A DNA stretch of 64,000 nucleotides from an uncultured Arcobacteraceae bacterium (GCA_964022095.1 CAXHZO010000002.1:160001-224000), one strand, 5' to 3'. Positions 25,903 through 42,030 are shown, numbered from the stretch's first letter. Program-made: numbers and translations. The notes: a model not told the origin generated them from the letters alone.

Positions 25903-26589
25903 ATGTTAAAAGAACAGTATAAAAATATAAAAATATTGTATGTAGAAGATGAACTACAAATAAGAGAAAATGCAGTATCTTATTTAAGAAGATTATTTAA
26001 TATTGTATATGAAGCAAAAGATGCTTTTGAAGCAATGAATATAATAAAAGAAAAAACTCCTCATATTGTAATTACAGATATAAAAATGCCTAAATTAAGT
26101 GGCTTAGATATGATTAGAAAAATTAGAGAGTATGATAAAAAAACAGAATTCATAGTTTTAACGGCTTTTTCTGATACTAAGTATTTAATGGATGCAATTG
26201 ATTTAAGATTAGTTAAGTATCTAACAAAACCAATTAGGCATGAAACCTTTTACCCTTTAATTTTAAATTGTGTTAAAAATATAGTAGAAGATAAATCAAA
26301 TAAAAAATATATTAGTGAAATATGTTATTTTGATATGATAAATGATGTTATTGATAACAACTCAGAATTAATTAACTTAACAAATTATGAAATAAAATTT
26401 TTTAAATTATTGTGTAAAAACTCTAATAGAGCAGTATCTTATGAAGAAATTCAAAATGCCGTTTGGAATGATGAGTATATGAGTGAAAATGCAATTAGAT
26501 TATTAGTTAGGGATTTAAGAAAAAAACTTCCTATAAATTGTATTAAAAATCATTCAAAAATTGGTTATCAAATAAAACTTTATTCATGA
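25903..26589 (+). CDS. OmpR-family response regulator
   Basis: LYVEDE, ITDIKMP, YLTKP, winged-helix C-terminus. Confidence 0.9.
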   Translation: MLKEQYKNIKILYVEDELQIRENAVSYLRRLFNIVYEAKDAFEAMNIIKEKTPHIVITDIKMPKLSGLDMIRKIREYDKKTEFIVLTAFSDTKYLMDAIDLRLVKYLTKPIRHETFYPLILNCVKNIVEDKSNKKYISEICYFDMINDVIDNNSELINLTNYEIKFFKLLCKNSNRAVSYEEIQNAVWNDEYMSENAIRLLVRDLRKKLPINCIKNHSKIGYQIKLYS

Positions 26590-28301
26590 GATATCTTTTT
26601 TTTATATTTTTATATTTTTCATCCTTAGATGCTTCTTCTTTATTTCATAAAGCTATTGAAAGTTATCATATTTCAGAAGATTTTAAAAATTATAAGTCTT
26701 TAAATATAGATGAATATAGAGTAAAAAAATTAAAACAATTTTCAATAAAAATAAAACTAAATAAAGACTTTTTATCAAAGAAAAACTATTATATGTATGT
26801 TGTATCAGACTTTGATAGTCTAATCAACACAAATGCCGTATATACTAAACATAATCATTTAATGATTATAAATTTAAAACAAAATAGCGATGTATTATAT
26901 TTTGATTATAAATATGATTCTTCTAAAAGAGGAGAGTTCAGATGTGATATTATAAATGAATTTGAATATAAATTTTTACTGCCTTATGAAGGAATACTAT
27001 ATGGAATTGCATATGGAATAATATTTTGTGCATTTTTATACTATATTATCATTTATTTCTCAACTTTAATTAAAGCTTTTTTATATTATTCAATAATGCA
27101 ATTTTTTGTATTACTATCATTAATAGGTTTTGTTTATTTTAGCTTTTTATCTTACCCAAATCAAAACTATTTATATGCGCAAGCTTGGGTGGATATTTTT
27201 GAGACTTTAGGATTATTATTTACTTTATTTTTTGTTAAAGAGATACTAAAAACAAAAACTATTATGCCAAAAATTAATATTTTTTTGAATTTTTTTATCT
27301 TTTTAAATTTAGCAGACATCTTAGCTATCTCAATATTTAAGTACTCTATTTTATATGAATATATGCCATTTTATTTTGGATTTTTCTTACCAATGATAGC
27401 AGGAATAATTGCTGTTATTAAAGGAAATAAATATGCAATTATTTATACATTAGGTTGGGGATTTTTATGTATTGTAGTCTATTTATTGCAAAAATTATAC
27501 TTTAATATTAGTGGAATATATATTATTCATTTAGCAGCATCATTTGAGTCTTTAATATTTAGTTTTGCACTTGGTTTAATGTTAAAAGATTTAGTTAATA
27601 AACAAAATGAAAAAGAAAAACTACTTATACATAAAAGTAAATTAGTCTCAATGGGAGAAATGATAAATAATATAGCTCATCAGTGGCGACAACCACTTAC
27701 TCATCTTAGTTTTATTAATATGAATTTAGAATTAGAATCTCAAGATGATAATTTTGATAAAAGCTATTTATTAAAAAAAATAAAAGAGTCAAATGAACAA
27801 ATTGAATTTATGTCATCTACTATTGATAGTTTTAGGAATTTTTATAAACCTCAAAAAGAAAAAGAGTTTTTTTGGATTTCAAATTCAGTAAATAATGTTA
27901 TATCTATGATGAAACCCTTATTAGAGTTACATAAAATTGATATAGAGTTAAATATTATTAATAATAAACAAATCAAAGCTTATGAAAATGAGTATGCACA
28001 AGTTGTTCTAAATCTAATCACAAATGCAAAAGATGCACTAATTATTAGAAAGATAAAAAATCCTAAAATTATTATTGATATTGACTTTAAAAATAGAAAA
28101 ACACTAACTTCTGTAAGTGATAATGCAAAAGGTATAGATTTAAAGATTATAGATAAAATATTTGAACCATATTTTTCAACAAAAGATAATGGTAGTGGAA
28201 TAGGTCTTTATATGTGTAGATTGATTTTAAAATCTCATTTTAAAGGAGATTTAATTGTTGAAAATAAAAAAGATGGTGCGTCGTTTACTATTGAAGTATA
28301 G
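26586..28301 (+). CDS. 7TM-DISM-type sensor histidine kinase
   Basis: Periplasmic domain plus seven hydrophobic segments; MGEMINNIAHQWRQPL, FEPYFSTK, GSGIGLY. Confidence 0.85.
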   Translation: MRYLFFIFLYFSSLDASSLFHKAIESYHISEDFKNYKSLNIDEYRVKKLKQFSIKIKLNKDFLSKKNYYMYVVSDFDSLINTNAVYTKHNHLMIINLKQNSDVLYFDYKYDSSKRGEFRCDIINEFEYKFLLPYEGILYGIAYGIIFCAFLYYIIIYFSTLIKAFLYYSIMQFFVLLSLIGFVYFSFLSYPNQNYLYAQAWVDIFETLGLLFTLFFVKEILKTKTIMPKINIFLNFFIFLNLADILAISIFKYSILYEYMPFYFGFFLPMIAGIIAVIKGNKYAIIYTLGWGFLCIVVYLLQKLYFNISGIYIIHLAASFESLIFSFALGLMLKDLVNKQNEKEKLLIHKSKLVSMGEMINNIAHQWRQPLTHLSFINMNLELESQDDNFDKSYLLKKIKESNEQIEFMSSTIDSFRNFYKPQKEKEFFWISNSVNNVISMMKPLLELHKIDIELNIINNKQIKAYENEYAQVVLNLITNAKDALIIRKIKNPKIIIDIDFKNRKTLTSVSDNAKGIDLKIIDKIFEPYFSTKDNGSGIGLYMCRLILKSHFKGDLIVENKKDGASFTIEV

Positions 28302-28851
28302 GAATTTTATCTATAATTTTTTTTAGATTATATTCGTTTTTTTTATATCTAATAATTGACTCTTTTAAATGTATATAAATCTTTTCTTGATTTATACCTC
28401 TAAATTTTTTTAGTCTACTTACTACAAATTCATTTAGATTACTTTTTTGCTTATAAAAGTTAATAATATTTAATTTATTAGATTCCTCATTATAAGTTAA
28501 CTTTATGCAATTAGCCCTTTTATGATTAAATAAAGAGTCTAATATTTGTTTATCTATTTTATACTTTAAATCATTTTCAAAAATTATTATATTTTCAAAC
28601 TCGATATAAAAAATTAAAAAATTAGAAATTTGGAAATATTTTAAGTAAAACTCTTTTTTTCTTGATTTTAGATATAAAAGATGATTTGTTTTATCAAACT
28701 CATTTAACAAATAGTATCTGATCTTTTGATAATAGTTATTGACCATATAACGGCTTAAATTGTGTCTTTTTGCACTTTTTGAAACAGTTAAGTCTTCAAT
28801 GAAACTATTTAAAATATTTATATGTAAATGACTGCTTTTTTTATCTCTCAT
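28288..28851 (-). CDS. IS1595-transposase-derived protein lacking the DDE core
   Basis: N-terminal FIEDLTVSKSAKRHNLSRYMVNNYYQKIR and C-terminal RLKKFRGINQEKIYIHLKESIIRY resemble IS1595-family ends; no E.DE.YFG motif. Confidence 0.55.
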   Translation of the reverse strand: MRDKKSSHLHINILNSFIEDLTVSKSAKRHNLSRYMVNNYYQKIRYYLLNEFDKTNHLLYLKSRKKEFYLKYFQISNFLIFYIEFENIIIFENDLKYKIDKQILDSLFNHKRANCIKLTYNEESNKLNIINFYKQKSNLNEFVVSRLKKFRGINQEKIYIHLKESIIRYKKNEYNLKKIIDKIPILQ

Positions 28852-28934
28852 CTTTTTATTTTAACTAAAAAAAATGTGGTAAAAATGTGCTTAAGTTCAT
28901 AAAGTATATTAAATTATTTTTATTAAACATGTTG

Positions 28935-28967
28935 GAATTAAACTTAAGATTATCATAAGTTTAATTC
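28935..28967. repeat. Perfect 12-bp inverted repeat with 9-nt spacer
   Basis: GAATTAAACTTA-agattatca-TAAGTTTAATTC. Confidence 0.8.
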
Positions 28968-28996
28968 AGAAATAATTCCAAAAATAAATATAATTA

Positions 28997-29011
28997 TGAT
29001 AATTGTTATCA
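28997..29011. promoter_or_regulatory. Fur box
   Basis: TGATAAT-T-GTTATCA, identical to the box at 24525. Confidence 0.8.
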
Positions 29012-29031
29012 TTAAAAAAGGAATTCAAAAT

Positions 29032-31137
29032 ATGCAAGTTAAAAAAAGATTTAAATTATCTTTATGTTTGATTTTAGCTTTAAGTGCAAATCTTCAAGCA
29101 AGCTCAACTATCTTAGATGAAGTTTCAATTGAAGAAAAAGTAGAAAATAATAATACAGAAAATACAGGATTATATACTGTAAAAGAGATGAAATCAGCTA
29201 CAAAACTAAACCTATCTATTAGAGATACGCCACAGTCTGTTACTGTATTAAGTACACAAAAACTTCAAGACTTAGGAGTAGACTCTTACCAAGAAATGTT
29301 ATCAAAAATCACAGGTGTTACACTAAATAGATGGGATGAAAGAGTAAATGCAAGTGCAAGAGGATTTGATATTGACTATTATAAAATTGATGGTTTACCT
29401 ACTTATTCTACATGGAACGAAAGAGATTTAGACTTATCAGTATATGATAGGGTTGAAGTTGTTAGGGGTGCAAATGGTTTGACAACAGGTTATGGAAATC
29501 CTGCTGTAAGTATTAATTTAGTTAGAAAAAGAGCTAATAGTAAAGAACTAAAAGGTAGTGTAAGTTTAGAAGGTGGTTCTTGGAATCATTATGGTGTTTT
29601 AGCAGATGTGGGTTCTTCTTTAAACGAATCAGGAAGTATTAGAGGAAGAGTTGTTTTAAAACATGAAAATAGTGATTCATTTATGGATGGATATGAAAAA
29701 GAAAATAATCTATTTTATGGTGTGATTGATTCAGATTTAACAGATACAACATCTTTATCTACAGGGTTTTCTTATCAAAAATTAAACAGAAATGGAATTA
29801 GATGGGGTGGTTTGCCTGCTTTTGATTCAAATGGAAATAGGATTGATTTTGAAAGATCTAGAACAGCATCTGAAGATTGGACTTATTGGGATAGTGAAGT
29901 TAAATCAGTTTTTGTTGATTTAAAACAAAATTTATTTGATAATTCTGTATTAAATATTGGATACTCTTATGATGAAATAAATGCTAATAGTGCATTATTA
30001 TATTTTTCTGGTGATGTTAATACGAGTGATGGTAGTGGTATTAATTATATGGATTGGCAAGCTGTACAACAAAGAAAACAACACAATTTTGATGCTAGTT
30101 TAAATGTTCCTTACGAAATAGGAGGCTTATTTCAAGAGTTTTTAGTTGGTATTTCTTATAATCTAGATAAACAAACAAAATATAATGGAAGGTATCCAAA
30201 TGGATACTATTCAACTTTAACAAATTTTTATGATTATGATTTATCTTTACCTGAAGCCTCTTCAAGTGATACCTTGTATATTGTAAAACCAAATGAAATA
30301 GAACAAAAAGCTATATATTTAGCAAATAGATTTTCTCTTAGTGAAAATCTGAAGTTAATAGCTGGACTTAGATTATCTTCATGGGAATATTCAAGTACAG
30401 ATACTACAAAAGAAACTAGAAAATTTTCAAATGAAATTACACCTTACACAGGAGTAGTTTATGATTTAGATAAAAATCACTCTTTATATGCAAGTTACAC
30501 TAGCATTTTTAAACCCCAAGATAAAAAGAATTCAAGTGGGGAGTATTTAGACCCAATAGTTGGAAACAATTATGAAATTGGTGCAAAGGGTGAATATTTT
30601 GATGGTTTATTAACAACATCACTGTCATTATTTCAAGTAAAACAAGACAAAGTAGCAACTGATGACCCAAGTGGTGTATTTGTTCCTGGAACGACAACTG
30701 TAGCTAGTATTGAAGCAAATGGAGTTGAAAGTAAAGGTTTTGAAGTAGATGTTACTGGAAAAGTTTCAGATAATTTAACACTAGATTTAAGTGTTGCAAA
30801 TTTTGAAGCAAAAGAATCCAATGGAAATAAGTACAATACAAAAGCCTCAAGAACAACTGCAAATTTATTCGCAAAATATGAAATCCACAATATAAGTTTT
30901 GGTGGAGGACTAAACTATAAAAGTAAATTTTATACAGGCACAGGTTCCTCAAAAATCACACAAGATGCATATACTATAGCAAATGCTATGGCCTCATATA
31001 AATTAAATAAAAATCTAAAATTTCAAATTAATGTAAATAATATTTTTGATAAAAAATATTATGAAGGTATAGGTTCTAATAGTATGGTTTATGGTGAACC
31101 TAGAAACTTTAAAGCTTCATTGAAGTACACATTTTAA
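29032..31137 (+). CDS. TonB-dependent siderophore receptor (FhuE/FpvA-like)
   Basis: SATKLNLSIRDTPQSVTV, YDRVEVVRGANGL, INLVRKR, YGEPRN. ATG 29032 follows AAGGA. Confidence 0.9.
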   Translation: MQVKKRFKLSLCLILALSANLQASSTILDEVSIEEKVENNNTENTGLYTVKEMKSATKLNLSIRDTPQSVTVLSTQKLQDLGVDSYQEMLSKITGVTLNRWDERVNASARGFDIDYYKIDGLPTYSTWNERDLDLSVYDRVEVVRGANGLTTGYGNPAVSINLVRKRANSKELKGSVSLEGGSWNHYGVLADVGSSLNESGSIRGRVVLKHENSDSFMDGYEKENNLFYGVIDSDLTDTTSLSTGFSYQKLNRNGIRWGGLPAFDSNGNRIDFERSRTASEDWTYWDSEVKSVFVDLKQNLFDNSVLNIGYSYDEINANSALLYFSGDVNTSDGSGINYMDWQAVQQRKQHNFDASLNVPYEIGGLFQEFLVGISYNLDKQTKYNGRYPNGYYSTLTNFYDYDLSLPEASSSDTLYIVKPNEIEQKAIYLANRFSLSENLKLIAGLRLSSWEYSSTDTTKETRKFSNEITPYTGVVYDLDKNHSLYASYTSIFKPQDKKNSSGEYLDPIVGNNYEIGAKGEYFDGLLTTSLSLFQVKQDKVATDDPSGVFVPGTTTVASIEANGVESKGFEVDVTGKVSDNLTLDLSVANFEAKESNGNKYNTKASRTTANLFAKYEIHNISFGGGLNYKSKFYTGTGSSKITQDAYTIANAMASYKLNKNLKFQINVNNIFDKKYYEGIGSNSMVYGEPRNFKASLKYTF

Positions 31138-31166
31138 AATATAAAGAGATATATTCTCTTTATATT
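31138..31166 (+). terminator. Hairpin after the receptor (terminator or mRNA stabiliser)
   Basis: AATATAAAGAGA-tatat-TCTCTTTATATT. Confidence 0.65.
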
Positions 31167-31177
31167 ATAGGAAAATT

Positions 31178-31483
31178 ATGAAAAATTTAATCAATTATTT
31201 ATCAAAACCAGAAACTACTGGTAAAAAAATAGGTCTTTTTAGAATTATATGTGCAATTTTTGGTGGTTTAATTTCAGCATATTTAATTATGACACTCTTT
31301 GTATTTTTAATACCTGGAAGTGTGGGAGAATCTATTGTTGTACCTTTATTATTTAATACATTATTATGGGCTGTTTTAGCTTTTTGGATTAGTTTATCTA
31401 GCTCAAAAATCATAGCTTTATTAAGAGCATTTATTCCCTGTTTTATTTGTATTTTTATTTTAACTTTTTTATATTTAGGATAG
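31178..31483 (+). CDS. Small 3-TM membrane protein of PepSY iron-uptake operons (DUF3649-like)
   Basis: RIICAIFGG motif, hydrophobic; lies between the receptor and the PepSY gene. Confidence 0.6.
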   Translation: MKNLINYLSKPETTGKKIGLFRIICAIFGGLISAYLIMTLFVFLIPGSVGESIVVPLLFNTLLWAVLAFWISLSSSKIIALLRAFIPCFICIFILTFLYLG

Positions 31484-31486
31484 TTT

Positions 31487-33064
31487 ATGAATGATTTAAC
31501 CAAAAAAGAAGAACAAAAGTTATTTAAACAAAGACTTCAAAGAGTTCATGTAGCTGTAGGTATTAGCTTTTCTTATTTTATGTATATTGCTGTTTTCTTC
31601 GGTATTTTTGCAATATTGTTACCTTATATTCAAGTGTGGGAAAAACCATCAAGACATTTTCAAACAGCTGATGTAACAAAAATTGATTATGGTGCTATGA
31701 TTGACCCTGTTTTAAAAGACCCCACTTATCCTACTGTAAATGGAGTAACTATAGTCTTACCAGGTTATATGGAAGATCCAGCATTAAAGATAAAAGCAGA
31801 ATTTACCAAAGATAGGATATTTAATCCAAATACTTTAGAAGAAGTAAAAAATGAAGACAAAGCCTCTCAATTAGCATTTTTTTTAAATTCTATGCACTAT
31901 GGAAGGCCTTTCAAAACTTTTGGATATATTTTATTTGGATTAACAGCAGTTGCTGTAATGTTTTTAGTTATAGGTGGAGTGATTTTAACTTTAAAAATTA
32001 GATATAAAAATAGTTCCTCTTCTAAAACAAGTGTATTTTCTAAATGGCATAGAAAAATATTTATTTGGATTTTTCCTCCATTTATAATAATTACACTAAC
32101 AGGTGCATTGATGAATATTGGTTATAGTTCTTCATCTTTGATGACTTATATATCTTCAAAAGGACAAACCCATGAAACATGGAGTTTGGTTGGTCCCGTT
32201 TTATATCCTCAAGATAAAATATTAGAAGAAAAAGGTATTAAAACAGATATGTTACCTATGAATGAACTTTTAAAAAAAGCAAAACAGATTAATCCAAATA
32301 TAAATTTCCAAAGAATAAAGATAACTAACTGGAATGATATCTCTGCCTCTGCAAAATTTGAAGGATACAATCCTTATATGCCATTTTTAAATGGAATATC
32401 AAATAAGCCAAGTGTTACATTAAGTGCAGTTGATGGAAGTTTAATTGAACAGAAAAAAGTATTAGATAAACACTGGTCTGGACTTTTCTATGATAGCATG
32501 ATGTTCTTACATTTATTATTTGGTGTGGATACTTTCACAAGATTATTAATTGTTTTAATAATGATTGTTTCAGTATTTGCTATTGGATTTGGTGTTTTAT
32601 TATGGTTAGAAAAAAAAGCGAGAAAATTCCCTGATAATATTCCGGTTTACCAAGGTATTGGTAAGTTTTCACTAGCAGTAATGATAGGGGTAATACCTGC
32701 TACAGGACTCTTGTTTTTATTACAATGGGTATTGCCTTTTGATTTAGAAGATAGGTTTTTAATACAAAAATCTCTTTTTGCGATTATGTGGATTTCAACA
32801 TTAACTTGGTCTTATTATAGATTAAACTCATATAAAACTGCAAAAGAGTTTTTATTTTTAGGAGGACTTTTATTTATACTTAGTCCTATTGCTCATTTTA
32901 TTAATAGCGGTTTTTCACCCTTTGAGTTGCATTTTTTAAACATGACAAGTATATTAAGTGTAGATATCGGTCTATTTATTTTTGGTTTAATCTTATTAAT
33001 TGTTGCATATAAATTGCCTTACAATCCAGAAAAAATAAAACTATTTTGGACGAAAAATTTTTAA
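31487..33064 (+). CDS. PepSY-associated TM domain protein
   Basis: VHVAVG, WEKPSRH, MHYG, WHRKI, LHLLFG. Confidence 0.85.
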   Translation: MNDLTKKEEQKLFKQRLQRVHVAVGISFSYFMYIAVFFGIFAILLPYIQVWEKPSRHFQTADVTKIDYGAMIDPVLKDPTYPTVNGVTIVLPGYMEDPALKIKAEFTKDRIFNPNTLEEVKNEDKASQLAFFLNSMHYGRPFKTFGYILFGLTAVAVMFLVIGGVILTLKIRYKNSSSSKTSVFSKWHRKIFIWIFPPFIIITLTGALMNIGYSSSSLMTYISSKGQTHETWSLVGPVLYPQDKILEEKGIKTDMLPMNELLKKAKQINPNINFQRIKITNWNDISASAKFEGYNPYMPFLNGISNKPSVTLSAVDGSLIEQKKVLDKHWSGLFYDSMMFLHLLFGVDTFTRLLIVLIMIVSVFAIGFGVLLWLEKKARKFPDNIPVYQGIGKFSLAVMIGVIPATGLLFLLQWVLPFDLEDRFLIQKSLFAIMWISTLTWSYYRLNSYKTAKEFLFLGGLLFILSPIAHFINSGFSPFELHFLNMTSILSVDIGLFIFGLILLIVAYKLPYNPEKIKLFWTKNF

Positions 33065-33075
33065 AAGGAAAATAA

Positions 33076-33570
33076 ATGAAAAGTTTAATAATTATTCTTG
33101 TTTTTTTATCAAGTTTATCAAGTCATGAACTTATATTAAATGTAAAAAATAATAACAATAATACAATAACCATAGAAGGTAGATTTAGTACAGATGAGCA
33201 CGCTTCGGGCGCTATTGTAAGATTAGAGTCTTTAATTGATGCCAAAATTTTGTATGAAAAAAGATTACCTAAAAGTAGCCAATTAAATTTGGAAATACCA
33301 AAAGTTCCTTATCAAATTGTTTTAGATGGAAGTCCTGATGAAGATATTATTGTAAAAGAAGGTATAGCACCTTTAGAAGGATTTAAAATTATAGAGAAAA
33401 AAGAAAGCGAAAATATGAATAATAATTTATCAGTAAGCCAATCTAATAGTCAAGAGTGGAATGATATAAGTATATTATTTTTCATTATTTGCTTAATATT
33501 ACTTTTGTTAGCAATTTATTTTAGTAATAAAAATACTAATAAGATTTTGAATGAAATTAGAATTAAATGA
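33076..33570 (+). CDS. Exported protein with C-terminal membrane anchor, unknown function
   Basis: Signal peptide ending before His (SSHEL), TITIEGRFST, C-terminal TM. Confidence 0.6.
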   Translation: MKSLIIILVFLSSLSSHELILNVKNNNNNTITIEGRFSTDEHASGAIVRLESLIDAKILYEKRLPKSSQLNLEIPKVPYQIVLDGSPDEDIIVKEGIAPLEGFKIIEKKESENMNNNLSVSQSNSQEWNDISILFFIICLILLLLAIYFSNKNTNKILNEIRIK

Positions 33571-33618
33571 TACTGATTATCAGTTTTAAATAAAAATTAA
33601 GCTTTTAATTGTTACTAT
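33568..33618 (+). promoter_or_regulatory. Fur box plus extended -10
   Basis: TGATACT-G-ATTATCA (33568-33582); TGTTACTAT (33610-33618). Confidence 0.72.
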
Positions 33619-33690
33619 TCTGACAATATTTTACATAGATAATAAATTAAATTATTGTGTTATGTAAATATACAAAACTTACAAATAAAA

Positions 33691-33735
33691 TAGCTAGCAA
33701 AAGATAAAATGTTCTCCTAAAATGTAGCCAGCCAA
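33691..33735 (+). repeat. Paired leader motif upstream of a receptor
   Basis: TAGCTAGCAAA (33691) and TAGCCAGCCAA (33725). Confidence 0.7.
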
Positions 33736-33764
33736 ATATTTAATTATTTAAAACAAGGACATAA

Positions 33765-35759
33765 ATGAAATTAAAGATTGCAAAATCAGTTGCTATGTTA
33801 CTTTTAACTCAAGTTGCATTGTATGCAGAAGATACTCAATTAGATAATATAAGTGTAAACACTACAGCTTTCGATGCACAAGTAAAATCTATATCTGCAA
33901 AACAGCTAGAAGAAGAACAGGCTAGTGATGTAAAAGATATTTTAAAATCTTTACCAAGTGTTACAGTTGATGGAAATGCTAGGTATGGGCAAAAAGTATA
34001 TGTAAGAGGTTTAGAAGATAAGTTTGCAAATATAACAATTGACGGTGCTAAAATGAGTGGTCAATTATTTCATCATTCAGGTGATCAAACAATTGATGCC
34101 TCTTTATTAAAAATAAGTGAAGTTGAACTTGGACCAAACTCTGCATTAAGTGGACCAGGTGTTGTAAATGGTTCTTTTAAATATGAAACAAAAGATCCAA
34201 GTGACTTTTTAGAAGAGGGTGAAGTATTTGGTGGAAAGTTAAGTCTAGGTTATGAAACAGCAAGACATAGAGAAAAAGGTTCGATTGCATTATTTGGTAA
34301 AGTCTCTGATAAACTTGAACTAGTAGGTATTGGTTCAATTTCTGATGATGGTAATTTAGAATTAGGAAATGGTACTAAGATTGCGAATAAAGAGAGTCGA
34401 TTAGAAAGTGGGTTAATAAAAGCTGTTGTAAAACCTAATGATTATAATACATTTAAACTATCTTATAATAAATATGAAGATGGAGGTAACAGAAATATCT
34501 CTGGAGAAAAAGTTGGTAGTGATGTAAATGATGAAAACTATAATTCAATTTCAAGAGATACTTACACATTAAAGTATGATTATAAACCAGATAATGAATA
34601 TGTGAATATTGAAGCAAATATTTATACAAATGAACAATGGATGACTAGAGAAGATGCTACATCTACAAATAGAAGTGGAGATAGTATTACTTATCCAGAA
34701 AGAGAATATATAAACTCATCTAAGGGATATGATTTAAGAAATACATCTTTACTTGGTACTCATAAAGTTACATTTGGTACAGATTATAATCATGAAGAAC
34801 AAGAAATTGAAACTAGTGGGAATACAGTAAATAATACAACAGGAGAAATATCTAATTCTGCTTTCTCTGGTGGTGAAATTGACAACTATGGTTTATATAT
34901 ACAAGATGAGATGCAATTTGACAAGTTAACTTTAACTTTAGGATCTAGATATGATAAATATGAATTAGGTGGGATTTATTCTGGTGATTTTACTCAATTA
35001 TCTCCAAAATTAAAAGCTAAATATCAATTAACAGATAATTTATCATTAAGAACAGCTTATGGTAGAATTTTTAAAGGACCAGCTTTAGGTGAAACTTTAA
35101 TGATTGATTCAAGTGATACACAAGTTGCTGATACAACTGCTCAAGAAGGTAACAACTATGAAATTGGATTTGATTATGAATTAACTAATGCATTAAATGC
35201 TGATTATGCAATCATTGGATTTAATGCATATAAGTACGATTTAAGTGATTATGCACATCCAACAAAAAACAACTCTTTATCATCTCAAGGTGAAATGGAA
35301 ATTTGGGGACTTGAAACAATGTTTTCATATGATAAAGATAAATTTGGAACAACAATATCTCATACATATACTGATGGTGAACAAAAAAATACAGCAGGTA
35401 TTTCATATGACCCTAAAACAGCTAAAATTCATGTATTTAAATTGGGTGTAAATTATCAAGTTACAAAAGAATTGAAATTTAATTATAATTCACAATTTGT
35501 TCCTGGAAATAAATATACAACATACTCATCAAGAAGTGATAGCATGAATGAATATAAAAGAAGTGGATATGGTGTACATGATATTAATCTTACTTTAAAA
35601 CCTAGTGGTTTAAAAAATACTACATTTAATTTAGGTGTTGCAAATATTTTTGATAAAGCATATGTTAGACATACAGCATTTGGTTCTCAAACAACTAGTA
35701 CAAATAAAGCATATGAAATAGGAAGAAATATTAAACTTCAAGTAGCATATAAATTTTAG
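33765..35759 (+). CDS. TonB-dependent receptor (FrpB/FetA-like)
   Basis: YVRGLED..ITIDGA..LFHHSG..IDASLLK plug; GRNIKLQVAYKF. Confidence 0.88.
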   Translation: MKLKIAKSVAMLLLTQVALYAEDTQLDNISVNTTAFDAQVKSISAKQLEEEQASDVKDILKSLPSVTVDGNARYGQKVYVRGLEDKFANITIDGAKMSGQLFHHSGDQTIDASLLKISEVELGPNSALSGPGVVNGSFKYETKDPSDFLEEGEVFGGKLSLGYETARHREKGSIALFGKVSDKLELVGIGSISDDGNLELGNGTKIANKESRLESGLIKAVVKPNDYNTFKLSYNKYEDGGNRNISGEKVGSDVNDENYNSISRDTYTLKYDYKPDNEYVNIEANIYTNEQWMTREDATSTNRSGDSITYPEREYINSSKGYDLRNTSLLGTHKVTFGTDYNHEEQEIETSGNTVNNTTGEISNSAFSGGEIDNYGLYIQDEMQFDKLTLTLGSRYDKYELGGIYSGDFTQLSPKLKAKYQLTDNLSLRTAYGRIFKGPALGETLMIDSSDTQVADTTAQEGNNYEIGFDYELTNALNADYAIIGFNAYKYDLSDYAHPTKNNSLSSQGEMEIWGLETMFSYDKDKFGTTISHTYTDGEQKNTAGISYDPKTAKIHVFKLGVNYQVTKELKFNYNSQFVPGNKYTTYSSRSDSMNEYKRSGYGVHDINLTLKPSGLKNTTFNLGVANIFDKAYVRHTAFGSQTTSTNKAYEIGRNIKLQVAYKF

Positions 35760-35764
35760 TAATT

Positions 35765-35790
35765 AAGAAAAGAGTTTAAACTCTTTTCTT
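35765..35790. terminator. Bidirectional intrinsic terminator
   Basis: Perfect palindrome AAGAAAAGAGTTT/AAACTCTTTTCTT. Confidence 0.8.
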
Positions 35791-35791
35791 T

Positions 35792-36244
35792 TTATTGGCA
35801 GTCTTCACAAATACCATAGATAATCATAGTATGGTCTTTCAATAAAAAACCATTTTTCTTAGCAATTTTAACTTGAGCATCTTCTATAAAATCATCATTG
35901 AATTCTATGATTTTATGACAATTTGTACAAATCATATGATCATGGTGAGTTGATAAGTTAAGTTCATATTTTTTTGCACCGTCTCCAATATCAAGTGATG
36001 TAATAATATTTATGTCCTCAAAGAACTTTAGTGCTCTATAAACAGTTGCAATACCTATATCAATGTTATACTCATTTTTTACTTTTGCAGTAATCTCTTC
36101 AGCATTTAAATGTTCATCTTCAAAATATAATGCTTTTAAAATATAATCTTTTTGTAAAGAGTTCTTTAATTTTAGATTTGAAATATGTTTTTTGAAGTTT
36201 TTTAAAAATCTATCAAAATTCATATTGTTCTCAACTGCACTCAT
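35792..36244 (-). CDS. fur: Ferric uptake regulator family protein
   Basis: HLNAEEI, IGIATVYRAL, HHDHMICTNC, GICEDC. Confidence 0.92.
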   Translation of the reverse strand: MSAVENNMNFDRFLKNFKKHISNLKLKNSLQKDYILKALYFEDEHLNAEEITAKVKNEYNIDIGIATVYRALKFFEDINIITSLDIGDGAKKYELNLSTHHDHMICTNCHKIIEFNDDFIEDAQVKIAKKNGFLLKDHTMIIYGICEDCQ

Positions 36245-36360
36245 TAATTATAACCTTGAAAAAATACTAGTAGTACTCCTACAAAAAGTGTTGATGAGTA
36301 GATTTTCCATAAATTACTATGTATTTTCATATTTTTTTCAATCAGATTAAGCTTTTTCAT
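36244..36360 (-). CDS. 38-aa ORF coupled to fur (not in ORF track)
   Basis: MKKLNLIEKNMKIHSNLWKIYSSTLFVGVLLVFFQGYN; GGGT upstream; stop overlaps the fur ATG (TAATG). Confidence 0.5.
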   Translation of the reverse strand: MKKLNLIEKNMKIHSNLWKIYSSTLFVGVLLVFFQGYN

Positions 36361-36375
36361 TTTTTTACCCTAAAT

Positions 36376-36440
36376 TAATAATCATTATTAATATATTAAC
36401 AACTATGCACTTAAAATAATATTAATGATAGTAGTTATCA
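36376..36440. promoter_or_regulatory. Two Fur boxes in the fur/hemP divergent region
   Basis: TAATAAT-C-ATTATTA (36376-36390) and TGATAGT-A-GTTATCA (36426-36440). Confidence 0.72.
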
Positions 36441-36517
36441 ATATTAATGTATATTTAAGTATTAACCTATTAATATTCCATTTACATTTTGTTAACAATT
36501 CATAAAGTAGGAAAGCT

Positions 36518-36649
36518 ATGAAAAATAAAAAAGAAAAAATTGATACAAAAGAGATATTTAGTGATTCAAATATAATAACTATTATTCATCAAGGACAAGA
36601 GTATCAATTAAGAATAACAAAATCAGATAAGTTAATTTTAACTAAATAA
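36518..36649 (+). CDS. hemP: HemP/HmuP family small protein, 43 aa (not in ORF track)
   Basis: MKNKKEKIDTKEIFSDSNIITIIHQGQEYQLRITKSDKLILTK, with the hallmark I.H.G..Y.LR.T...KLILTK; AGGA RBS. Confidence 0.92.
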   Translation: MKNKKEKIDTKEIFSDSNIITIIHQGQEYQLRITKSDKLILTK

Positions 36650-36659
36650 AAATATTAAA

Positions 36660-36697
36660 TAGCCAGCAAATACTATCTTCTAAAAGTAGCCAGCAAA
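36660..36697 (+). repeat. Exact 11-nt direct repeat between hemP and the receptor
   Basis: TAGCCAGCAAA at 36660 and 36687. Confidence 0.85.
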
Positions 36698-36728
36698 AAA
36701 TATAAATACAATTTACTAAGGATAAAAA

Positions 36729-38924
36729 TTGAAATTAAAAATTGCAAGTAGTGTGGCTATATTGTTGACTAGTCAAAGTTTATTAGGAAATGAAACATTG
36801 CTAGATGATGTTACGGTTACAACTGCATCAGGTTATGAACAAAAATTAGCAGATGCACCTGCTAGTATTTCTGTGATTTCTAAAGAGAATTTATCAAAAA
36901 AACCATATACAAATTTATTAGATGCTTTAAAAGATATAGAAGGTGTTGATATTGGTGAAACAAGAGATAAATCAGGGCAAGGAAGTATCAGTATTAGAGG
37001 TATGGGTGGTGATTATACTTTAATAATGATTGATGGTAAGAAACAAAACAATAATGGTGATATATATCCAAATAATTTTGGAGGATTCCAAAATGCAAAT
37101 TTACCACCTCTTGAAATGATAGAAAGAATTGAAGTTGTTAGAGGACCTATGTCTACACTTTATGGTGCAGATGCTATGGGTGGTGTTGTAAATATCATAA
37201 CTAAAAAAATTACTAGTGAATGGACAGGGGCTATAACACATGGTAAAACTTTTCAAAGTGATAGCCAGTTTGGAAATGATACAACTACAGATTTTGCTTT
37301 AATGGGGCCATTAGTAAAAGATAAATTAGGATTAAGTTTAAGGGGTAGTTATTATGATAAAGAGGCTTCAACTCCCATAACATCAAATGGTTCAACATTT
37401 GGAGGTGCTGGAAAGACTGTAGATAATCAAAATTGGAATTTTGGTACAAGTTTAACATTTACTCCCAATGAAAATCATACAATAAAAGCAGATTACGATA
37501 TTTCAAAACAAAAATATGACAACACGGGAAGTTCTGTAGGAACAGTTGATAGTTATGAGAATTTGTGGTATGAAAGAAGAGGTACTTATTCTCCAAGAGT
37601 TGGTTATGCAACGGTACAAAGAATGGAAAGAGAACAGTATTCAATTTCACATGAAGCACAGTGGGAAGTTGGAAAAAGTACTATTTCAGCACATTATATA
37701 AAAACAGGTAATTTAGGAAGAAGTTTACCTTTAAATGCTACACAAAGAGTATTTATGAATAGTTTATACTCTAACTATACAGATTTAGAAGACTTTAGAG
37801 CAAATGGAACTGCAGCAGAAATTGCTGAGTTTGAAGCACTTCTACCAAGACCAACTAGAACTTTAGAATCAAGAACTATGACTTATGATGCAAAGTATGA
37901 ATTACCATTAGAAGAACACTTTTTAGTAGTTGGAGCACAGTATGTTGATGCTGAATTAGAAGATGGAGTATTTGGTATGACAGATGCTGTACAAACTAAA
38001 TCAGGTGTAGTTCAAGATTATAAACAATGGGCTTTATTTGGAGAAGATACATGGGCTATTAGTGATAATTTATCATTTACAACAGGTCTTAGATATGATA
38101 ATCATGAATCTTTTGGAAGTAATTTAAGTCCAAGAGGGTATGCAATTTATAATTTAAATGACAATTGGACATTTAAAGGTGGTGTAGCAACAGGATATAA
38201 AACTCCAAAAACTACAGATTTATTTGATGGTGTTACTGGTTTTGGTGGGCAAGGAACTTCTCCATGGGTTGGTAATCCAAATTTAAATCCTGAAAAAAGT
38301 GTAAGTAGTGAAATAGCAGCTTACTACAGCCATGAATCTGGACATAATTTTAATATTACAATTTTTAATAATGATTTTGAAGATAAAATTGAAAGTGTTA
38401 CTTTAACTCAAAATCAATTACCTTCAGAGTGGGATGGAATAGCTACAAGTGCTAGACAAAAACAAAATGTTGGTGAAGCACAAATTAAAGGTATTGAATT
38501 AGCCGGTAAATATAAAATTACAAAAGATGTAACTTTTAAAGCAAACTATACATACACAGATTCACAAAGAGAAGATACAGGTAATCCATTGTCTTCAACT
38601 GCAAAACATTTATATAATGTTACTTTAGATTGGCAAATAAATAAAAAGTGGAACACATATATTAATATGAATGCAGAAAAAGATAGATGGAGAGGAGTTG
38701 AAGGTTTAGATTACTATGAAGATTATCAAGTATTTAATTTAGGTTCTTCATATAAAGTATCAAATGATGTTACTTTAAATGGAAGAGTAAATAATTTATT
38801 TGATAAAGATTTTAGTGGAACAACTGATTATACAGATGCCAATGGTGATGCTGCAACAGCATATAGTTATAACTTAGCCCAAAAAAGAAGAGAGTTTTGG
38901 ATAAGTATGAATGTTAAATTCTAA
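36729..38924 (+). CDS. TonB-dependent receptor (CirA/IrgA/CfrA-like)
   Basis: TASGYEQKLADAPASISVI, IERIEVVRGPMSTLYGADAMGGVVNIITKK; TTG start after AAGGA. Confidence 0.9.
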   Translation: MKLKIASSVAILLTSQSLLGNETLLDDVTVTTASGYEQKLADAPASISVISKENLSKKPYTNLLDALKDIEGVDIGETRDKSGQGSISIRGMGGDYTLIMIDGKKQNNNGDIYPNNFGGFQNANLPPLEMIERIEVVRGPMSTLYGADAMGGVVNIITKKITSEWTGAITHGKTFQSDSQFGNDTTTDFALMGPLVKDKLGLSLRGSYYDKEASTPITSNGSTFGGAGKTVDNQNWNFGTSLTFTPNENHTIKADYDISKQKYDNTGSSVGTVDSYENLWYERRGTYSPRVGYATVQRMEREQYSISHEAQWEVGKSTISAHYIKTGNLGRSLPLNATQRVFMNSLYSNYTDLEDFRANGTAAEIAEFEALLPRPTRTLESRTMTYDAKYELPLEEHFLVVGAQYVDAELEDGVFGMTDAVQTKSGVVQDYKQWALFGEDTWAISDNLSFTTGLRYDNHESFGSNLSPRGYAIYNLNDNWTFKGGVATGYKTPKTTDLFDGVTGFGGQGTSPWVGNPNLNPEKSVSSEIAAYYSHESGHNFNITIFNNDFEDKIESVTLTQNQLPSEWDGIATSARQKQNVGEAQIKGIELAGKYKITKDVTFKANYTYTDSQREDTGNPLSSTAKHLYNVTLDWQINKKWNTYINMNAEKDRWRGVEGLDYYEDYQVFNLGSSYKVSNDVTLNGRVNNLFDKDFSGTTDYTDANGDAATAYSYNLAQKRREFWISMNVKF

Positions 38925-38930
38925 TTAAAT

Positions 38931-39461
38931 TTATAATAGTGATTGAATAAAGCTTTTTATAGTTTTATCATCACTATAAAACTCGTAAAACTCTTCAATG
39001 CTATTAAAACTATTTATTGGCAGTTCATTATCTTTTTTTTCTAAGACTTCTTGTTCATTATTGTTATTGATTTTTTTTAAGTAAGTTTTTGTTTCAAAGT
39101 ATGCATTAGTAATAATCTCTATACAATCTTTATGTTCAAGTTTTGCTAATAGTTTTATTTCTTTTTGTTTTGCTTTTTTCTTATTGATTTTATCTTGAAA
39201 CTCTAAAATATTTAAATCAATTTCTTCACATTTTCTTTTAGTATATTTACTATCAAAAACTTCAATTTGAAATAAACCTTTTACTATTAAGAATTTTTTT
39301 AAAATATAAGTGTCTTTACCTATTATGATTTCTATTTCAAGGTTTGCTACACTATCTTCAAATCCCATCGCTTTGTATGCATTAGCATTATCATATTTAC
39401 CACCTAATTTAAACTTTTTGCAGTTTGGTATTAAGTTGAAACCAATATTTTGTATTTTCAT
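38931..39461 (-). CDS. Hypothetical protein
   Basis: 176-aa ORF with AAGGA RBS; no recognised motif. Confidence 0.6.
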   Translation of the reverse strand: MKIQNIGFNLIPNCKKFKLGGKYDNANAYKAMGFEDSVANLEIEIIIGKDTYILKKFLIVKGLFQIEVFDSKYTKRKCEEIDLNILEFQDKINKKKAKQKEIKLLAKLEHKDCIEIITNAYFETKTYLKKINNNNEQEVLEKKDNELPINSFNSIEEFYEFYSDDKTIKSFIQSLL

Positions 39462-39589
39462 TTAATCCTTTCTTTTGTTTTAAAAACGAAAGTATAATTG
39501 ATAAATATTACAAATTGGAAACGAAGTAAGTAAGTGTAAGTTTATGTATTAAAAAAGATTATGCAGGAGTATTTTTTAAAATGAAGTGC

Positions 39590-39613
39590 CAAATAGTTAA
39601 ATTTAACTATTTG
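39590..39613 (-). terminator. Palindromic hairpin downstream of csp
   Basis: CAAATAGTTAAA/TTTAACTATTTG. Confidence 0.6.
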
Positions 39614-39626
39614 ACTTTAGTGATAA

Positions 39627-39845
39627 CTATAAAGTTTCTACACCTTTAGCTTGCTCACCTTTAAGACCTTCACCGATTTCGAATGAAACTTTTTGACCAT
39701 CTTCTAAAGAAACTCTACCGAAACCTTCTTTTTTGATTTCACTGTGATGTACAAAAATATCTTTGCTACCATCGTCTAATTGAATAAATCCAAAACCTTT
39801 TTCACTGTCGAACCATTTAATAGTTCCATTAATTCTATCTGCCAT
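39627..39845 (-). CDS. Cold-shock protein
   Basis: [22 protein letters not shown]. Confidence 0.95.
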
Positions 39846-40041
39846 AGAGTTTCCTTTGTTTGTTAAGCACTTCTTATATTGAAGTTTTGTATAAAGTCTA
39901 ATTAAGTCTTATCTTTTTGAAAGTTTTATATCAACCTGAAAGTTTTAATAAAAAGCATGTAAAATGAAAGCATGAAATTTTCTTTAAGTGCAAAATTGTA
40001 TCATAAAAAATCAATTTACACAAATAAGTTTTTTTAGATAT

Positions 40042-40071
40042 AAAAAAAGGCCTATCAAAAGATAGACCTTT
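40042..40071 (-). terminator. Intrinsic terminator of hup
   Basis: Minus strand AAAGGTCTATC-tttt-GATAGGCC followed by T7. Confidence 0.8.
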
Positions 40072-40093
40072 AAAGTTTTTTAAAGTAAAAAAA

Positions 40094-40369
40094 TTACTTA
40101 GCTACAGCTTCTTTTAAAGCTTTTCCAACTTTGAATTTAGCAACAGTAGTTGCAGGTACGTTAACAGTTTTATCAGTTCCTGGAACTTTTGCAGTTCTAG
40201 CAGCTCTATCAGCAGTTGTAAATGTACCAAATCCGATGAAACTTACAGATTCTCTTTTTACTAAAGTATCAGTAATAGTATCTAATACTGCATCAACAGC
40301 ACCTTTTGCATCTTTCTTCGATAATCCAGCCTTTGCAGCTACTGCGTCAATAAATTCAGCTTTGTTCAT
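40094..40369 (-). CDS. hup: DNA-binding protein HU
   Basis: MNKAEFIDAVA, GFGTF, KFKVGKALKEAV. Confidence 0.95.
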   Translation of the reverse strand: MNKAEFIDAVAAKAGLSKKDAKGAVDAVLDTITDTLVKRESVSFIGFGTFTTADRAARTAKVPGTDKTVNVPATTVAKFKVGKALKEAVAK

Positions 40370-40488
40370 TAAGAACTCCTTATGTAAAATTAAATTTATA
40401 AACTTTATAGTATTTAACCTTTAGAATAGCTAAAACTTGGGGCTTTATGCAAAAAAATAATTAAAAATATAATAAAATTTATGATTTT

Positions 40489-41067
40489 TTAGTCATAAGA
40501 AGCTTTTATACTTAATAATCTACAAGAATTCTCTAATATTGCGATTTTTTTCACAAGCTCATTTATGTCTCTATCGTAGACATAAGTTCCTACACCTTTT
40601 ACTATCATCACATTATTTTGAGATTCTTTTAAATATTTTGTAACTTCAAGAGCATTTCTTTGATACCAGCTAGAAAATTCACCTGGATCATACACTTTTA
40701 AACTTCCAAATGTTGTTTTTCCAAAGAAATCTTCAAACTCAATATAATCATGTTCAAATGTATAAGCAGTAGTATATATTGGCATACCAAAAGCTATATA
40801 TTTAGCTTCATGAATATTTGAGTAAATAGTTTGATGAATATGTGATTCGATACTTGCCATATTCCATCTATAATCTTTTTTATTCATATTAAGTGCACAA
40901 AAAGACTTTTCTCCCATTTCATCAAAAATTGCATCTGATGTATTTATCAAAAAATGGTTTTGGTCTAATTTTGCAGAAATTGCACCATGGTAGATACCAA
41001 AAAAGTTTTTTCTAAACATTGTTAGAGATAGTTTTGTTAATAGTTCTACTGTAGCTTTATCAATCAT
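40489..41067 (-). CDS. Class II aldolase/adducin-domain protein
   Basis: GIYHGAISAK, ASIESHIHQTIY. Confidence 0.75.
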   Translation of the reverse strand: MIDKATVELLTKLSLTMFRKNFFGIYHGAISAKLDQNHFLINTSDAIFDEMGEKSFCALNMNKKDYRWNMASIESHIHQTIYSNIHEAKYIAFGMPIYTTAYTFEHDYIEFEDFFGKTTFGSLKVYDPGEFSSWYQRNALEVTKYLKESQNNVMIVKGVGTYVYDRDINELVKKIAILENSCRLLSIKASYD

Positions 41068-41127
41068 TTTAAAAGCCTTAAATCTTATTTTTGGTATTAT
41101 ATATTAATTTTTATAAGGACTATTTTA

Positions 41128-42030
41128 ATGGACATACCTCATATACCAGTATTGTACAAAGAGACACTACAAGCTTTTGAAGATATCAATAGTGGTTATA
41201 TCATTGATTGTACCACAGGTTTTGGTGGACACAGTAATGGAATACTAGAACAAAATGACAATATTAAGTTAATTTGTAATGATCAAGATGATGAAGCTTT
41301 AACTTTTTCTAAAAAAAGATTACAAGAGTACTCTTCTAGAATTACTTTTAATAAGGGTAATTTTGAAACGGTACTAGATACTTTCAAAGATTTTGATGTA
41401 AAAGGTGTCTTAGCTGATATTGGAGTATCTTCTTTACAACTTGATAAGCAAGAGCGTGGTTTTGGTTTTGAAAGTGAAATTTTAGATATGAGAATGAATC
41501 AAGAGAATCCTTTAGATGCCTCAATAGTTGTTAACACATATTCTCAAAATGATCTAGAAAGAGTTTTCAAAGAGTATGGAGAAGTAAGGGAATATAAAAA
41601 ACTTGCTTCAATTATAGTTAATAATAGACCTTTTAGTAGTGCAAAAGAGTTATCTGAATTTATTTCTAAAAATATGTCAAAGGGAAAAATACACCCAGCT
41701 ACTTTACCTTTTCAAGGAATTAGAATTGAAGTAAATGATGAGCTTGGAGTTTTAGAAAGACTTTTTGATTCATTAGAAAAAGCAAAATTAAAAGATTGCG
41801 TTGTTGCAATTATCTCTTTTCATTCGCTAGAAGACAGAATAGTAAAAAACTATTTTAAAAAATGGACAAAATCTTGTATCTGTCCAAAAGAAGTATTTAG
41901 ATGTGAGTGTGGGAATAATCACTCATTAGGTAAGATTATTACAAAAAAACCTATTATCCCAACAAAAGAAGAGATTAAGGTGAATCCAAGAAGTAGAAGC
42001 TCAAAATTAAGGATATTTAAATTTGATTAA
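41128..42030 (+). CDS. rsmH: 16S rRNA m4C1402 methyltransferase
   Basis: HIPVL, DCTTGFGGHS, DIGVSSLQLD, LDMRM, ISFHSLEDRIVK, NPRSRS. Confidence 0.96.
   Translation: MDIPHIPVLYKETLQAFEDINSGYIIDCTTGFGGHSNGILEQNDNIKLICNDQDDEALTFSKKRLQEYSSRITFNKGNFETVLDTFKDFDVKGVLADIGVSSLQLDKQERGFGFESEILDMRMNQENPLDASIVVNTYSQNDLERVFKEYGEVREYKKLASIIVNNRPFSSAKELSEFISKNMSKGKIHPATLPFQGIRIEVNDELGVLERLFDSLEKAKLKDCVVAIISFHSLEDRIVKNYFKKWTKSCICPKEVFRCECGNNHSLGKIITKKPIIPTKEEIKVNPRSRSSKLRIFKFD

Follow-up and report, generated by a model that had tools for sequence, protein, structure and literature searches.

The fur-hemP locus and its repeat pairs

The DNA stretch analysed here comprises 64,000 nucleotides (nt) from the genome of an uncultured bacterium of the Arcobacter family (the window; G000:C2:160001-224000; genome of 2,565,272 bases, 27.9% G+C). 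It carries a gene for the small protein HemP and two genes for TonB-dependent receptors, each of which is preceded by a pair of short direct repeats of the type AGCYAGC; these repeat pairs and their relation to HemP are the subject of this report. The hemP gene (36518-36649, + strand) encodes 43 amino acids (aa) that match the Pfam family PF10636 with an E-value of 9.7e-15 and 54.6 bits against a cut-off of 25, and it is divergent from fur (35792-36244, - strand; 150 aa, FUR PF01475, E 2.6e-34), as a preliminary description of this DNA had proposed. Its small size together with a score above the curated cut-off places the protein in the HemP/HmuP family, of which relatives with solved structures are available (2JRA, 2LOJ, 4YNX), and a genome-wide search identified a single hemP in the entire 2.57-Mb genome. 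The residues H24 and Y29 and the basic C-terminal LILTK are invariant among 16 Campylobacterota HemP sequences, and His24 and Tyr29 are putative haem ligands. By analogy to other HemP proteins described in the literature, HemP of the window might bind haem as well as nucleic acids (PMC9131926).

Both receptors are encoded on the + strand and contain Plug and barrel domains. Receptor 2 (36729..38924; 731 aa, TTG start codon) follows hemP and is the predicted cis target, receptor 1 (33765..35759; 664 aa) is the predicted trans target. The four motif copies reported earlier, TAGCTAGCAAA at 33691, TAGCCAGCCAA at 33725 and TAGCCAGCAAA at 36660 and 36687, were all recovered on the + strand. Pair 1 (33692..33732, +), which is similar to the published HmuP-responsive element (HPRE), consists of AGCTAGC (33692-33698) and AGCCAGC (33726-33732) separated by a 27-nt spacer with the tract TTCTCC (33712-33717), and the HPRE-like pair 2 (36661..36694, +), which starts 11 nt past the hemP stop codon, consists of two copies of AGCCAGC (36661-36667 and 36688-36694) separated by a 20-nt spacer with the tract TCTTCT (36676-36681). 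The second heptamer of pair 1 ends 32 nt before the ATG of receptor 1 at 33765 and that of pair 2 ends 34 nt before the TTG of receptor 2 at 36729, which fits the distance of about 30 nt given before; the Shine-Dalgarno motif AAGGA is found at 33755..33759 (+) for receptor 1 and at 36718..36722 (+) for receptor 2.

The heptamer AGCCAGC occurs 39 times in the genome on both strands, nearly always within long open reading frames (ORFs) and once in a tRNA-like stretch. If a degenerate pair is defined as two copies on the same strand, each with at most one mismatch to AGCCAGC and followed by [AC]A, at a gap of 8-40 nt, exactly two pairs are present in the genome, namely those in the two receptor leaders, compared to 0.71 expected from the 332 single sites. 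The genome encodes seven receptors with a Plug domain and a pair precedes two of them; for the other five AGCNAGC is absent from the 260 nt upstream, in line with the earlier remark that the motif was not seen before two other receptors. The presence of repeat pairs in both leaders exceeds chance.

Co-occurrence of the repeat pairs with hemP

The distribution of the element was surveyed in 184 genomes of the Arcobacter family using the loose pattern AGCNAGC-N10-40-AGCCAGC; as these genomes are related, the outcome is reported as counts and no test was applied. hemP is present in 52 of the 184 genomes and the loose pattern in 57, and the two are correlated across genomes as described for HPRE, a published element discussed below: the pattern is found in 47/52 genomes with hemP and in 10/132 genomes lacking it. 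These matches do not look like the element: in nine of the ten there is no T before the second copy, and the [AC]AA that usually follows the copies is mostly absent; the tenth genome (G520) is 80% complete. The reversed pattern, used as a control, yielded almost no matches. Of the nine genera of the family in which hemP occurs, eight contain true pairs. The preliminary description had proposed that such pairs should not be equally common in hemP-less genomes, and this is borne out by the survey. Across the phylum, hemP was found in 17 of 401 sampled genomes and in none of those from the two largest families sampled (0/118 and 0/158).

The genes following the pairs are of a uniform kind. All loci collected contain 95 pattern sites, from which 27 sites at loci L024-L048 were left out as chance matches from other families of higher G+C content; six of the remaining 68 run off the locus end or lack an ORF of 100 aa at a distance of up to 300 nt, and the other 62 lead to 61 distinct ORFs. 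A Plug domain is encoded in 59/61 of them, the two others being a PepSY_TM protein and a 145-aa protein of unknown type, and the pair is oriented in sense direction relative to the receptor in every case. Conversely, five relatives encode 43 Plug receptors of which 11 have a pair, and among the 32 others none of the 31 that could be evaluated shows AGCNAGC within 130 nt upstream. In most genomes a pair directly follows hemP; moreover, pairs on contigs other than that of hemP, or 2-11 kb from it, are present in at least 14 hemP genomes, and the highest number of true pairs per genome is four, in G560. The HemP-linked element thus occurs both in cis and in trans, as had been suggested from the window, with conserved pairs next to hemP and at distant receptor genes.

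Repeat pairs arising by chance, or persisting as relics of a duplication that have no function, are hardly credible in view of these data. Such an explanation would draw on the facts that there are just two sites in the genome and that the common N-terminus of the two receptors (see below) could mean a duplicated 5' module. It has to be held against the 0.71 pairs expected genome-wide, while both observed pairs are at the same place before receptor genes, and against the conservation of the repeats with diverging spacers, which extends to other families and, within the Arcobacter family, to at least eight of the nine genera with hemP.

Orthologues of receptor 2 separate the receptor type from the presence of hemP. 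Matches with E<=1e-100 are found in 29 of the 184 genomes, G000 included; 18 of these 29 genomes have no hemP and all 18 are also without a pair, and AGCNAGC was not found in the six leaders read from hemP-less genomes (G324, G479, G167, G472, G405, G474). Among the hemP genomes, the orthologue is preceded by a pair in G535, G402 and G406 and by a form with one mismatch, missed by the loose pattern, in G548 and G407; in G268, in which the orthologue is located 3 kb from hemP (L056), the leader contains what looks like a decayed pair, and in G518 the orthologue is without any pair. This comparison shows that the element follows hemP and not the receptor type.

It might be argued that the repeats are read by another recogniser, a small RNA or a protein, and that hemP merely travels in the same iron-uptake islands. 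In favour of this view, five hemP genomes of the family are without the strict pattern (G453, G457, G517, G522, G268), and HemP proteins may have other roles, as in G457 (L057), where a different gene follows hemP; in our reading the ORF at this position resembles a ferritin. Such a recogniser is nevertheless improbable: distant pairs or pairs on other contigs are confined to hemP genomes, the 18 hemP-less genomes with a receptor 2 match are likewise pair-less, and the same motif is genetically tied to HmuP in Ensifer meliloti (PMC9131926, PMC9241770). Moreover, no complementary intergenic candidate with GCTGGCT stood out among the 39 occurrences of the heptamer in the genome, in a search that was not aimed at small RNAs.

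Some individual loci of the family deserve mention. In G402 (G402:C1:793487-793739, L113) two pairs 221 nt apart precede one receptor gene, with a TTCTCC tract between. G177 contains hemP twice, in identical copies separated by about 11 kb, and 1-1.4 kb downstream of either copy there is a receptor gene with repeats; in the same genome (G177:C1:1763183-1763524, L050) a repeat-linked receptor gene is split by an in-frame TAG into ORFs of 152 and 507 aa. A well-formed match, AGCTAGCAAAG...TAGCCAGC, occurs in G243 (G243:C3:20527-20567, - strand; L049) with no receptor downstream; in the 5-kb stretch the motif strand has only two ORFs of at least 60 aa, both far from the match, and this site is treated as chance or unexplained.

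Relation to the published HPRE

HPRE is a direct repeat upstream of haem receptor genes, stated to be widespread in alpha- and betaproteobacteria and absent from gammaproteobacteria (PMC9241770). In E. meliloti an HPRE is present in the 5' untranslated region of shmR and is genetically tied to HmuP (PMC9131926, PMC9241770). For Chromobacterium violaceum, HPREs were predicted (Amarelle et al., 2019, as quoted in PMC9131926) at chuR, 26 nt before the ATG and formed by direct repeats of AGCCAGCC, and at the siderophore receptor gene vbuA, which is located far from chuP; both are based on GCCAGCC (PMC9131926). The pairs of the window are likewise direct repeats with a GCCAGCC-type core when compared to the quoted chuR and vbuA elements, and they have the same sense position close before the start of a TonB-dependent receptor gene (32 and 34 nt). 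As the core, the kind of place and the partner gene are the same, the motif of the window is of a known kind, and the AGCYAGC pairs are very probably the Campylobacterota form of HPRE, functional and linked to HemP. The preliminary description had left open whether the consensus matches: it does for the HPRE core as quoted for C. violaceum. The further suggestion of a new small-protein/RNA regulon has to be replaced by that of a known HPRE-type element in another phylum, for which ChuP-vbuA is a precedent with a siderophore receptor.

The shmR HPRE of E. meliloti resembles the element of the window in being a GCCAGCC-type direct repeat before a TonB-dependent receptor gene in a genome with HmuP/HemP, and in its proposed action on the mRNA leader, raising receptor expression. 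It differs in that the element described here is found in Campylobacterota, with repeats forming G+C islands in AT-rich leaders, placed 18-43 nt apart (start to start) and often with UUCUCC between, and in that the targets are mostly siderophore-type receptors, one to about four per genome. The ChuP system of C. violaceum comes close in its layout: a HemP-family gene directly upstream of a receptor gene with the HPRE between and no promoter there, and a second HPRE at the distant siderophore receptor gene vbuA, i.e., the same cis-plus-trans arrangement; Fur controls this system, for which a post-transcriptional model is preferred (PMC9131926). In contrast to the window, the cis target of C. 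violaceum is a true haem receptor in a chuPRSTUV operon and the quoted repeats are nearly contiguous (PMC9131926), whereas the window has long spacers and a CfrA/CirA-like cis target that is not followed by genes for haem transport or degradation. Bradyrhizobium japonicum HmuP and Burkholderia multivorans HemP are members of the same protein family and, when iron is limiting, positively control genes for receptors or uptake. In these models the protein is placed on DNA, at an inverted repeat in B. multivorans and in co-activation with Irr in B. japonicum, unlike the window element, which is a sense direct repeat at a place that would leave no room for a promoter.

A report of HPRE, HemP or HmuP in Arcobacter or Campylobacterota was not found in the literature searched; taxa or motifs listed by Amarelle et al. 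(2019) or in the supplement of PMC9131926 may bear on this. The element, its partner and the cis-plus-trans layout including a siderophore receptor are already known from C. violaceum. As far as the literature searched shows, what is new is the occurrence in Campylobacterota, the clear comparative evidence that HemP regulons comprise several types of receptor, one to about four per genome, and, as described in the following sections, the tract in the spacer and the association with an N-terminus.

The target receptors and their common N-terminus

For receptor 1 the best NCBIfam match is TonB-hemin with 250 bits, under the cut-off of 316.85; for receptor 2 the best matches are CfrA (463.6 bits, cut-off 1200) and CirA (347.5 bits, cut-off 745), both under the cut-off. 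Of the boxes named FRAP and NPNL in haem receptors, receptor 1 contains FKGP at the FRAP position and is missing NPNL; NPNL is present in receptor 2. Neither receptor can thus be assigned as a haem receptor, the identity given for genes downstream of an HPRE, and the earlier view that the two are not of the classical haem type is maintained. A haem-receptor target is not a strict feature of HPRE because of the vbuA precedent (PMC9131926). In some relatives, receptors of the similarity cluster of receptor 1 directly follow hemP. Across the genomes surveyed the NCBIfam types of the targets comprise CfrA/CirA-like, sub-cut-off TonB-hemin-like, Fiu-like (668 and 700 bits, cut-off 686) and generic siderophore receptors; single-linkage clustering at 45% identity merged CfrA-like and Fiu-like receptors via fragments and is good only for stating that there are several distinct groups.

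The receptors of the window begin with MKLKIAKSVAMLLL and LKLKIASSVAILLT and have the pattern M/L-KLKIA-x-SVA-x-LL in common, despite an identity of only 25% over 517 aligned residues, so that the common start noticed in the preliminary description is real. A start of the form MK-[ILM]-[KRNS]-[IM]-[AT] is found in 15/55 repeat-linked ORFs and spans three receptor similarity clusters; it was found in 0/31 repeat-less receptors of the five relatives and in 0/5 repeat-less receptors of the window genome. Orthologues of receptor 2 in hemP-less genomes begin with MNIKRKSLLS... or with the diverged MRIKLA and MRIKMG. Leader and first codons may have been moved or constrained together, or may in part be of common ancestry.

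The leaders and the probable level of action

The level of action was addressed with 55 unique leaders, obtained from originally 60 after five without a Shine-Dalgarno motif were dropped. The distance from the end of the second repeat to the start codon is 18-112 nt and at most 34 nt in 25 leaders; the repeats are spaced 18-43 nt from start to start with a mode of 30 and show no helical phasing. As judged from this geometry, a gap of 18-34 nt would leave no room for a promoter plus a leader with a Shine-Dalgarno motif. The short gap, the unphased spacing and the fixed orientation together favour an element that is read as RNA, suggesting that it is transcribed and that HemP might act at the RNA level.

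If the repeats instead acted at the DNA level, the duplex would be bound by HemP, either by itself or in combination with Fur or a different partner, and receptor transcription would be activated or modulated. Direct transcriptional activation is indeed what was reported for HmuP of B. japonicum and HemP of B. multivorans, the co-occurrence and target data fit recognition of DNA and of RNA equally, no conserved RNA structure was found in the leaders, and the own promoter region of receptor 1 is close to pair 1. Against such a mode of action stand the B. multivorans site, which is an inverted repeat and as such unlike the motif of the window (PMC9241770), and the properties of HemP, which is without a known DNA-binding domain (PMC9131926); DNA probes covering the chuP-chuR region were not bound by ChuP (PMC9131926). 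Furthermore, the pair next to hemP begins 4-20 nt past its stop codon and ends down to 18 nt before the receptor start, where a promoter presumably cannot fit, and the spacing of 18-43 nt without helical phasing and the invariable sense orientation likewise speak against a duplex site. Action on DNA is therefore considered unlikely.

Between the repeats, a pyrimidine tract recurs that might pair with the Shine-Dalgarno sequence. CTCC, TCCT or CCTC is present in 30/55 spacers compared to 1/55 upstream and 0/55 downstream control segments. In a set of 30 leaders with non-redundant spacers, of which seven come from other lineages, the mean energy of the duplex between spacer and Shine-Dalgarno region is -5.57 kcal/mol compared to -4.44 kcal/mol for shuffled spacers (Wilcoxon p 0.02) and -3.07 kcal/mol for upstream controls (p 0.0004). 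Matched variants of spacer and Shine-Dalgarno sequence were observed, i.e., GCCUCC with GGAGGC, CUCCU with AGGAG and CUCCA with UGGAG. The duplex of leader 1 (-6.9 kcal/mol vs. -3.0 kcal/mol shuffled, p 0.03) exceeds that of shuffled sequences while the duplex of leader 2 is no better than shuffles (p 0.21). It is possible that a masking of the ribosome-binding site relieved by HemP is part of the mechanism, and this is better backed for leader 1 than for leader 2.

A structured cis-regulatory RNA of the riboswitch type was considered and rejected as a conserved fold with covariation was not found: an Rfam scan of 26000-42000 (E<=1) yielded only two weak, unrelated matches outside the region of interest, and RNAalifold found no consensus structure in 14 leaders. 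The eight long Fiu-type leaders of one genus (g2) gave 28 pairs in RNAalifold with no compensatory changes, these sequences being too similar.

Antitermination, by which HemP at the repeats would permit read-through of a leader terminator, had been offered in the preliminary description and does not stand up to the leaders of the window. The adjacency of hemP and receptor 2 makes control by read-through conceivable, and the long leaders (72-112 nt) of some relatives are predicted to form stable hairpins downstream of the repeats and upstream of the start codon. Neither leader of the window contains a terminator-like hairpin followed by a T-run, though; the sole site of this kind in 33400-36800 is found at 35765..35790 (+), following receptor 1, and the leaders are short (32 and 34 nt past the second repeat) and weakly folded. 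This makes antitermination very improbable here.

In the leaders L074, L076, L078-L080, L082, L083 and L096 a conserved GCTGGT, complementary to the repeat, is located about 55 nt past the second copy. In these long Fiu-type leaders of g2, which have energies of -23 to -36 kcal/mol, RNAalifold pairs this GCTGGT with the first repeat, and UUCUCC pairs with GGAGGA.

Transcription signals and proposed mechanism

Two overlapping promoter-like sites precede pair 1 on the + strand, CTGACA-17-TAAATT at 33620-33648 and TTTACA-17-TATTGT at 33630-33658, each with 9/12 consensus matches. The transcript of receptor 1 probably starts about 35-40 nt before pair 1. A contig of 2016 nt from a relative in the metagenomic run X1 begins at 33653, right behind the -10 of the first promoter-like site, and includes both pair 1 and receptor 1; its start is a hint and not a mapped transcription start. 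No promoter-like or terminator-like site was found between hemP and receptor 2, and the hemP transcript would therefore be expected to run into pair 2. A contig of 2593 nt from run X4 extends from 36530 within hemP through pair 2 into receptor 2, beyond 37400. Compared to the Fur-box consensus of the E. coli type, Fur-box-like sites are present upstream of the receptor 1 promoter region (33563..33587, 14-15/19) and, two in number, in the fur-hemP intergenic region (36371-36395 and 36421-36445, 14/19 each).

From these data the following sequence of events can be proposed. Under iron limitation, Fur would leave the promoters upstream of hemP and of receptor 1. hemP and receptor 2 would be transcribed together with pair 2 on one mRNA, while the mRNA of receptor 1 would start at a separate promoter and contain pair 1 in the 5' untranslated region. 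HemP would then recognise the two single-stranded repeats on the mRNA and raise receptor expression post-transcriptionally, by more translation, a more stable mRNA or both. In many relatives, and perhaps in leader 1, UUCUCC between the repeats could pair with the Shine-Dalgarno sequence, and HemP bound to the flanking repeats would keep the ribosome-binding site open. The observations comprise the motif itself, the agreement with the HPRE core, a nearly exclusive association with hemP genomes and receptor leaders and the constant sense orientation; HemP binding, action at the RNA level, the direction of control and the control by Fur are inferred. On balance, a Fur-controlled HemP/HPRE regulon consisting of hemP, receptor 2 and, three kb away, receptor 1, including the action at the RNA level, is the reading towards which the data lean.

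Several observations weigh against this mechanism. Fur-box scores of at least 14/19 are reached at 438 sites genome-wide, making the boxes weak evidence. The four metagenomic runs used, out of five with a guessed RNA label, provided contigs only, which give no information on starts, ends, strand or expression. The spacer tetramer is present in 4/11 spacers vs. 1/11 and 0/11 in controls if a strict non-redundant set is used, only 4/30 non-redundant leaders individually beat their shuffles and about a third are without complementarity. The leaders of the window are nearly unstructured, with minimum free energies of -4.0 and -4.4 kcal/mol; in full folds, the pairing probability of Shine-Dalgarno sequence and spacer is 0.10 for leader 1 and 0.05 for leader 2 and reaches at least 0.5 in only 16/55 leaders, and the RNAalifold analysis of 14 leaders yielded 0 conserved pairs. 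HmuP of B. japonicum and HemP of B. multivorans are reported as transcriptional activators (PMC9131926) and HemP of Stenotrophomonas maltophilia acts negatively (PMC9241770); as these reports disagree, level and sign of HemP control appear to vary among species. The five hemP genomes without the strict pattern, among them G457 with a different gene after hemP, have to be added, and statistics on the co-occurrence overstate the association because related genomes are not independent.

A more far-reaching and rather doubtful version is that the Campylobacterota HemP/HPRE is a portable translational switch, by which a haem-sensing HemP would gate the translation of a changing set of siderophore receptors, about four at most, in that it prevents the ribosome-binding site from pairing. 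The switch module would then comprise two HemP-binding repeats with the anti-Shine-Dalgarno tract UUCUCC between them, as well as the ribosome-binding site and about twelve initial codons (MK-L/I-K-I-A...), and would move as a whole onto unrelated receptor genes and, elsewhere, onto TonB/ExbB genes.

Receptor 1 as a variable cassette

The terminator-like hairpin following receptor 1 is also a synteny breakpoint. The sister genome G535 contains pair 2 and receptor 2 (97% identical), and its alignment to the window begins only at 35765; receptor 1 was not found in G535 using the receptor 1 protein as query (E<=1e-20). A contig of run X4 joins position 33575 to 35762 and represents a form without the 2186-bp stretch 33576-35761, which contains the promoter, pair 1 and receptor 1. 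Judging by the junction in X4 and the G535 alignment, receptor 1 and the leader with its repeats behave together as a variable, self-contained cassette.

Occurrence beyond the family and implications

Outside the family of the window, a phylum-wide scan with the pattern was rejected as uninformative as genera of higher G+C content yield many matches in coding sequences. In genomes of the Sulfurimonas type, pairs are present 0.7-0.8 kb after hemP, before receptor genes. At the loci L153, L170, L191, L152, L196, L198/L211 and L200, AGCCAGCC pairs directly follow hemP. They precede a TonB gene in a metagenome-assembled genome (MAG) of Sulfurospirillum, an ExbB-like gene in a Campylobacterales MAG, receptor genes in Dechloromonas, Aquabacterium and MAGs of Competibacteraceae and Pseudomonadota, and a gene for a MetA-like outer-membrane protein in two Geobacteraceae MAGs. 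These pairs are spread wider than the range quoted in PMC9241770, and together with those of the Arcobacter family they suggest that HPRE is not restricted to alpha- and betaproteobacteria as published; the pairs outside the family are to be taken as leads only, because chance matches are likelier in G+C-rich genomes.

HemP/HmuP proteins are widespread and their mode of action is disputed, regarding both DNA or RNA as target and activation or repression as outcome. The AT-rich leaders of the Arcobacter family reduce the element to two G+C islands of 7 nt and a short spacer and thereby offer a clean natural system for binding and reporter tests, for which the comparative data already define the bases that matter. 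For environmental Campylobacterota, in the Arcobacter family and others, the element might add a post-transcriptional layer beyond Fur to the control of iron uptake. Moreover, it provides a simple rule for annotation, predicting which receptors belong to the HemP regulon.

Two further observations concern the surroundings of the locus. The window contains 23 Fur-box-like 19-mers (>=14/19) vs. 438 in the genome, about twice the genome density, and several of these sites precede other receptor or iron ORFs, e.g., at 28992-29016 at the start of a FhuE-like receptor. Directly upstream of fur, an ORF of 38 aa (36244-36360, - strand) is found, the stop codon of which overlaps the fur start; it gave no Pfam match and its C-terminal half is hydrophobic.

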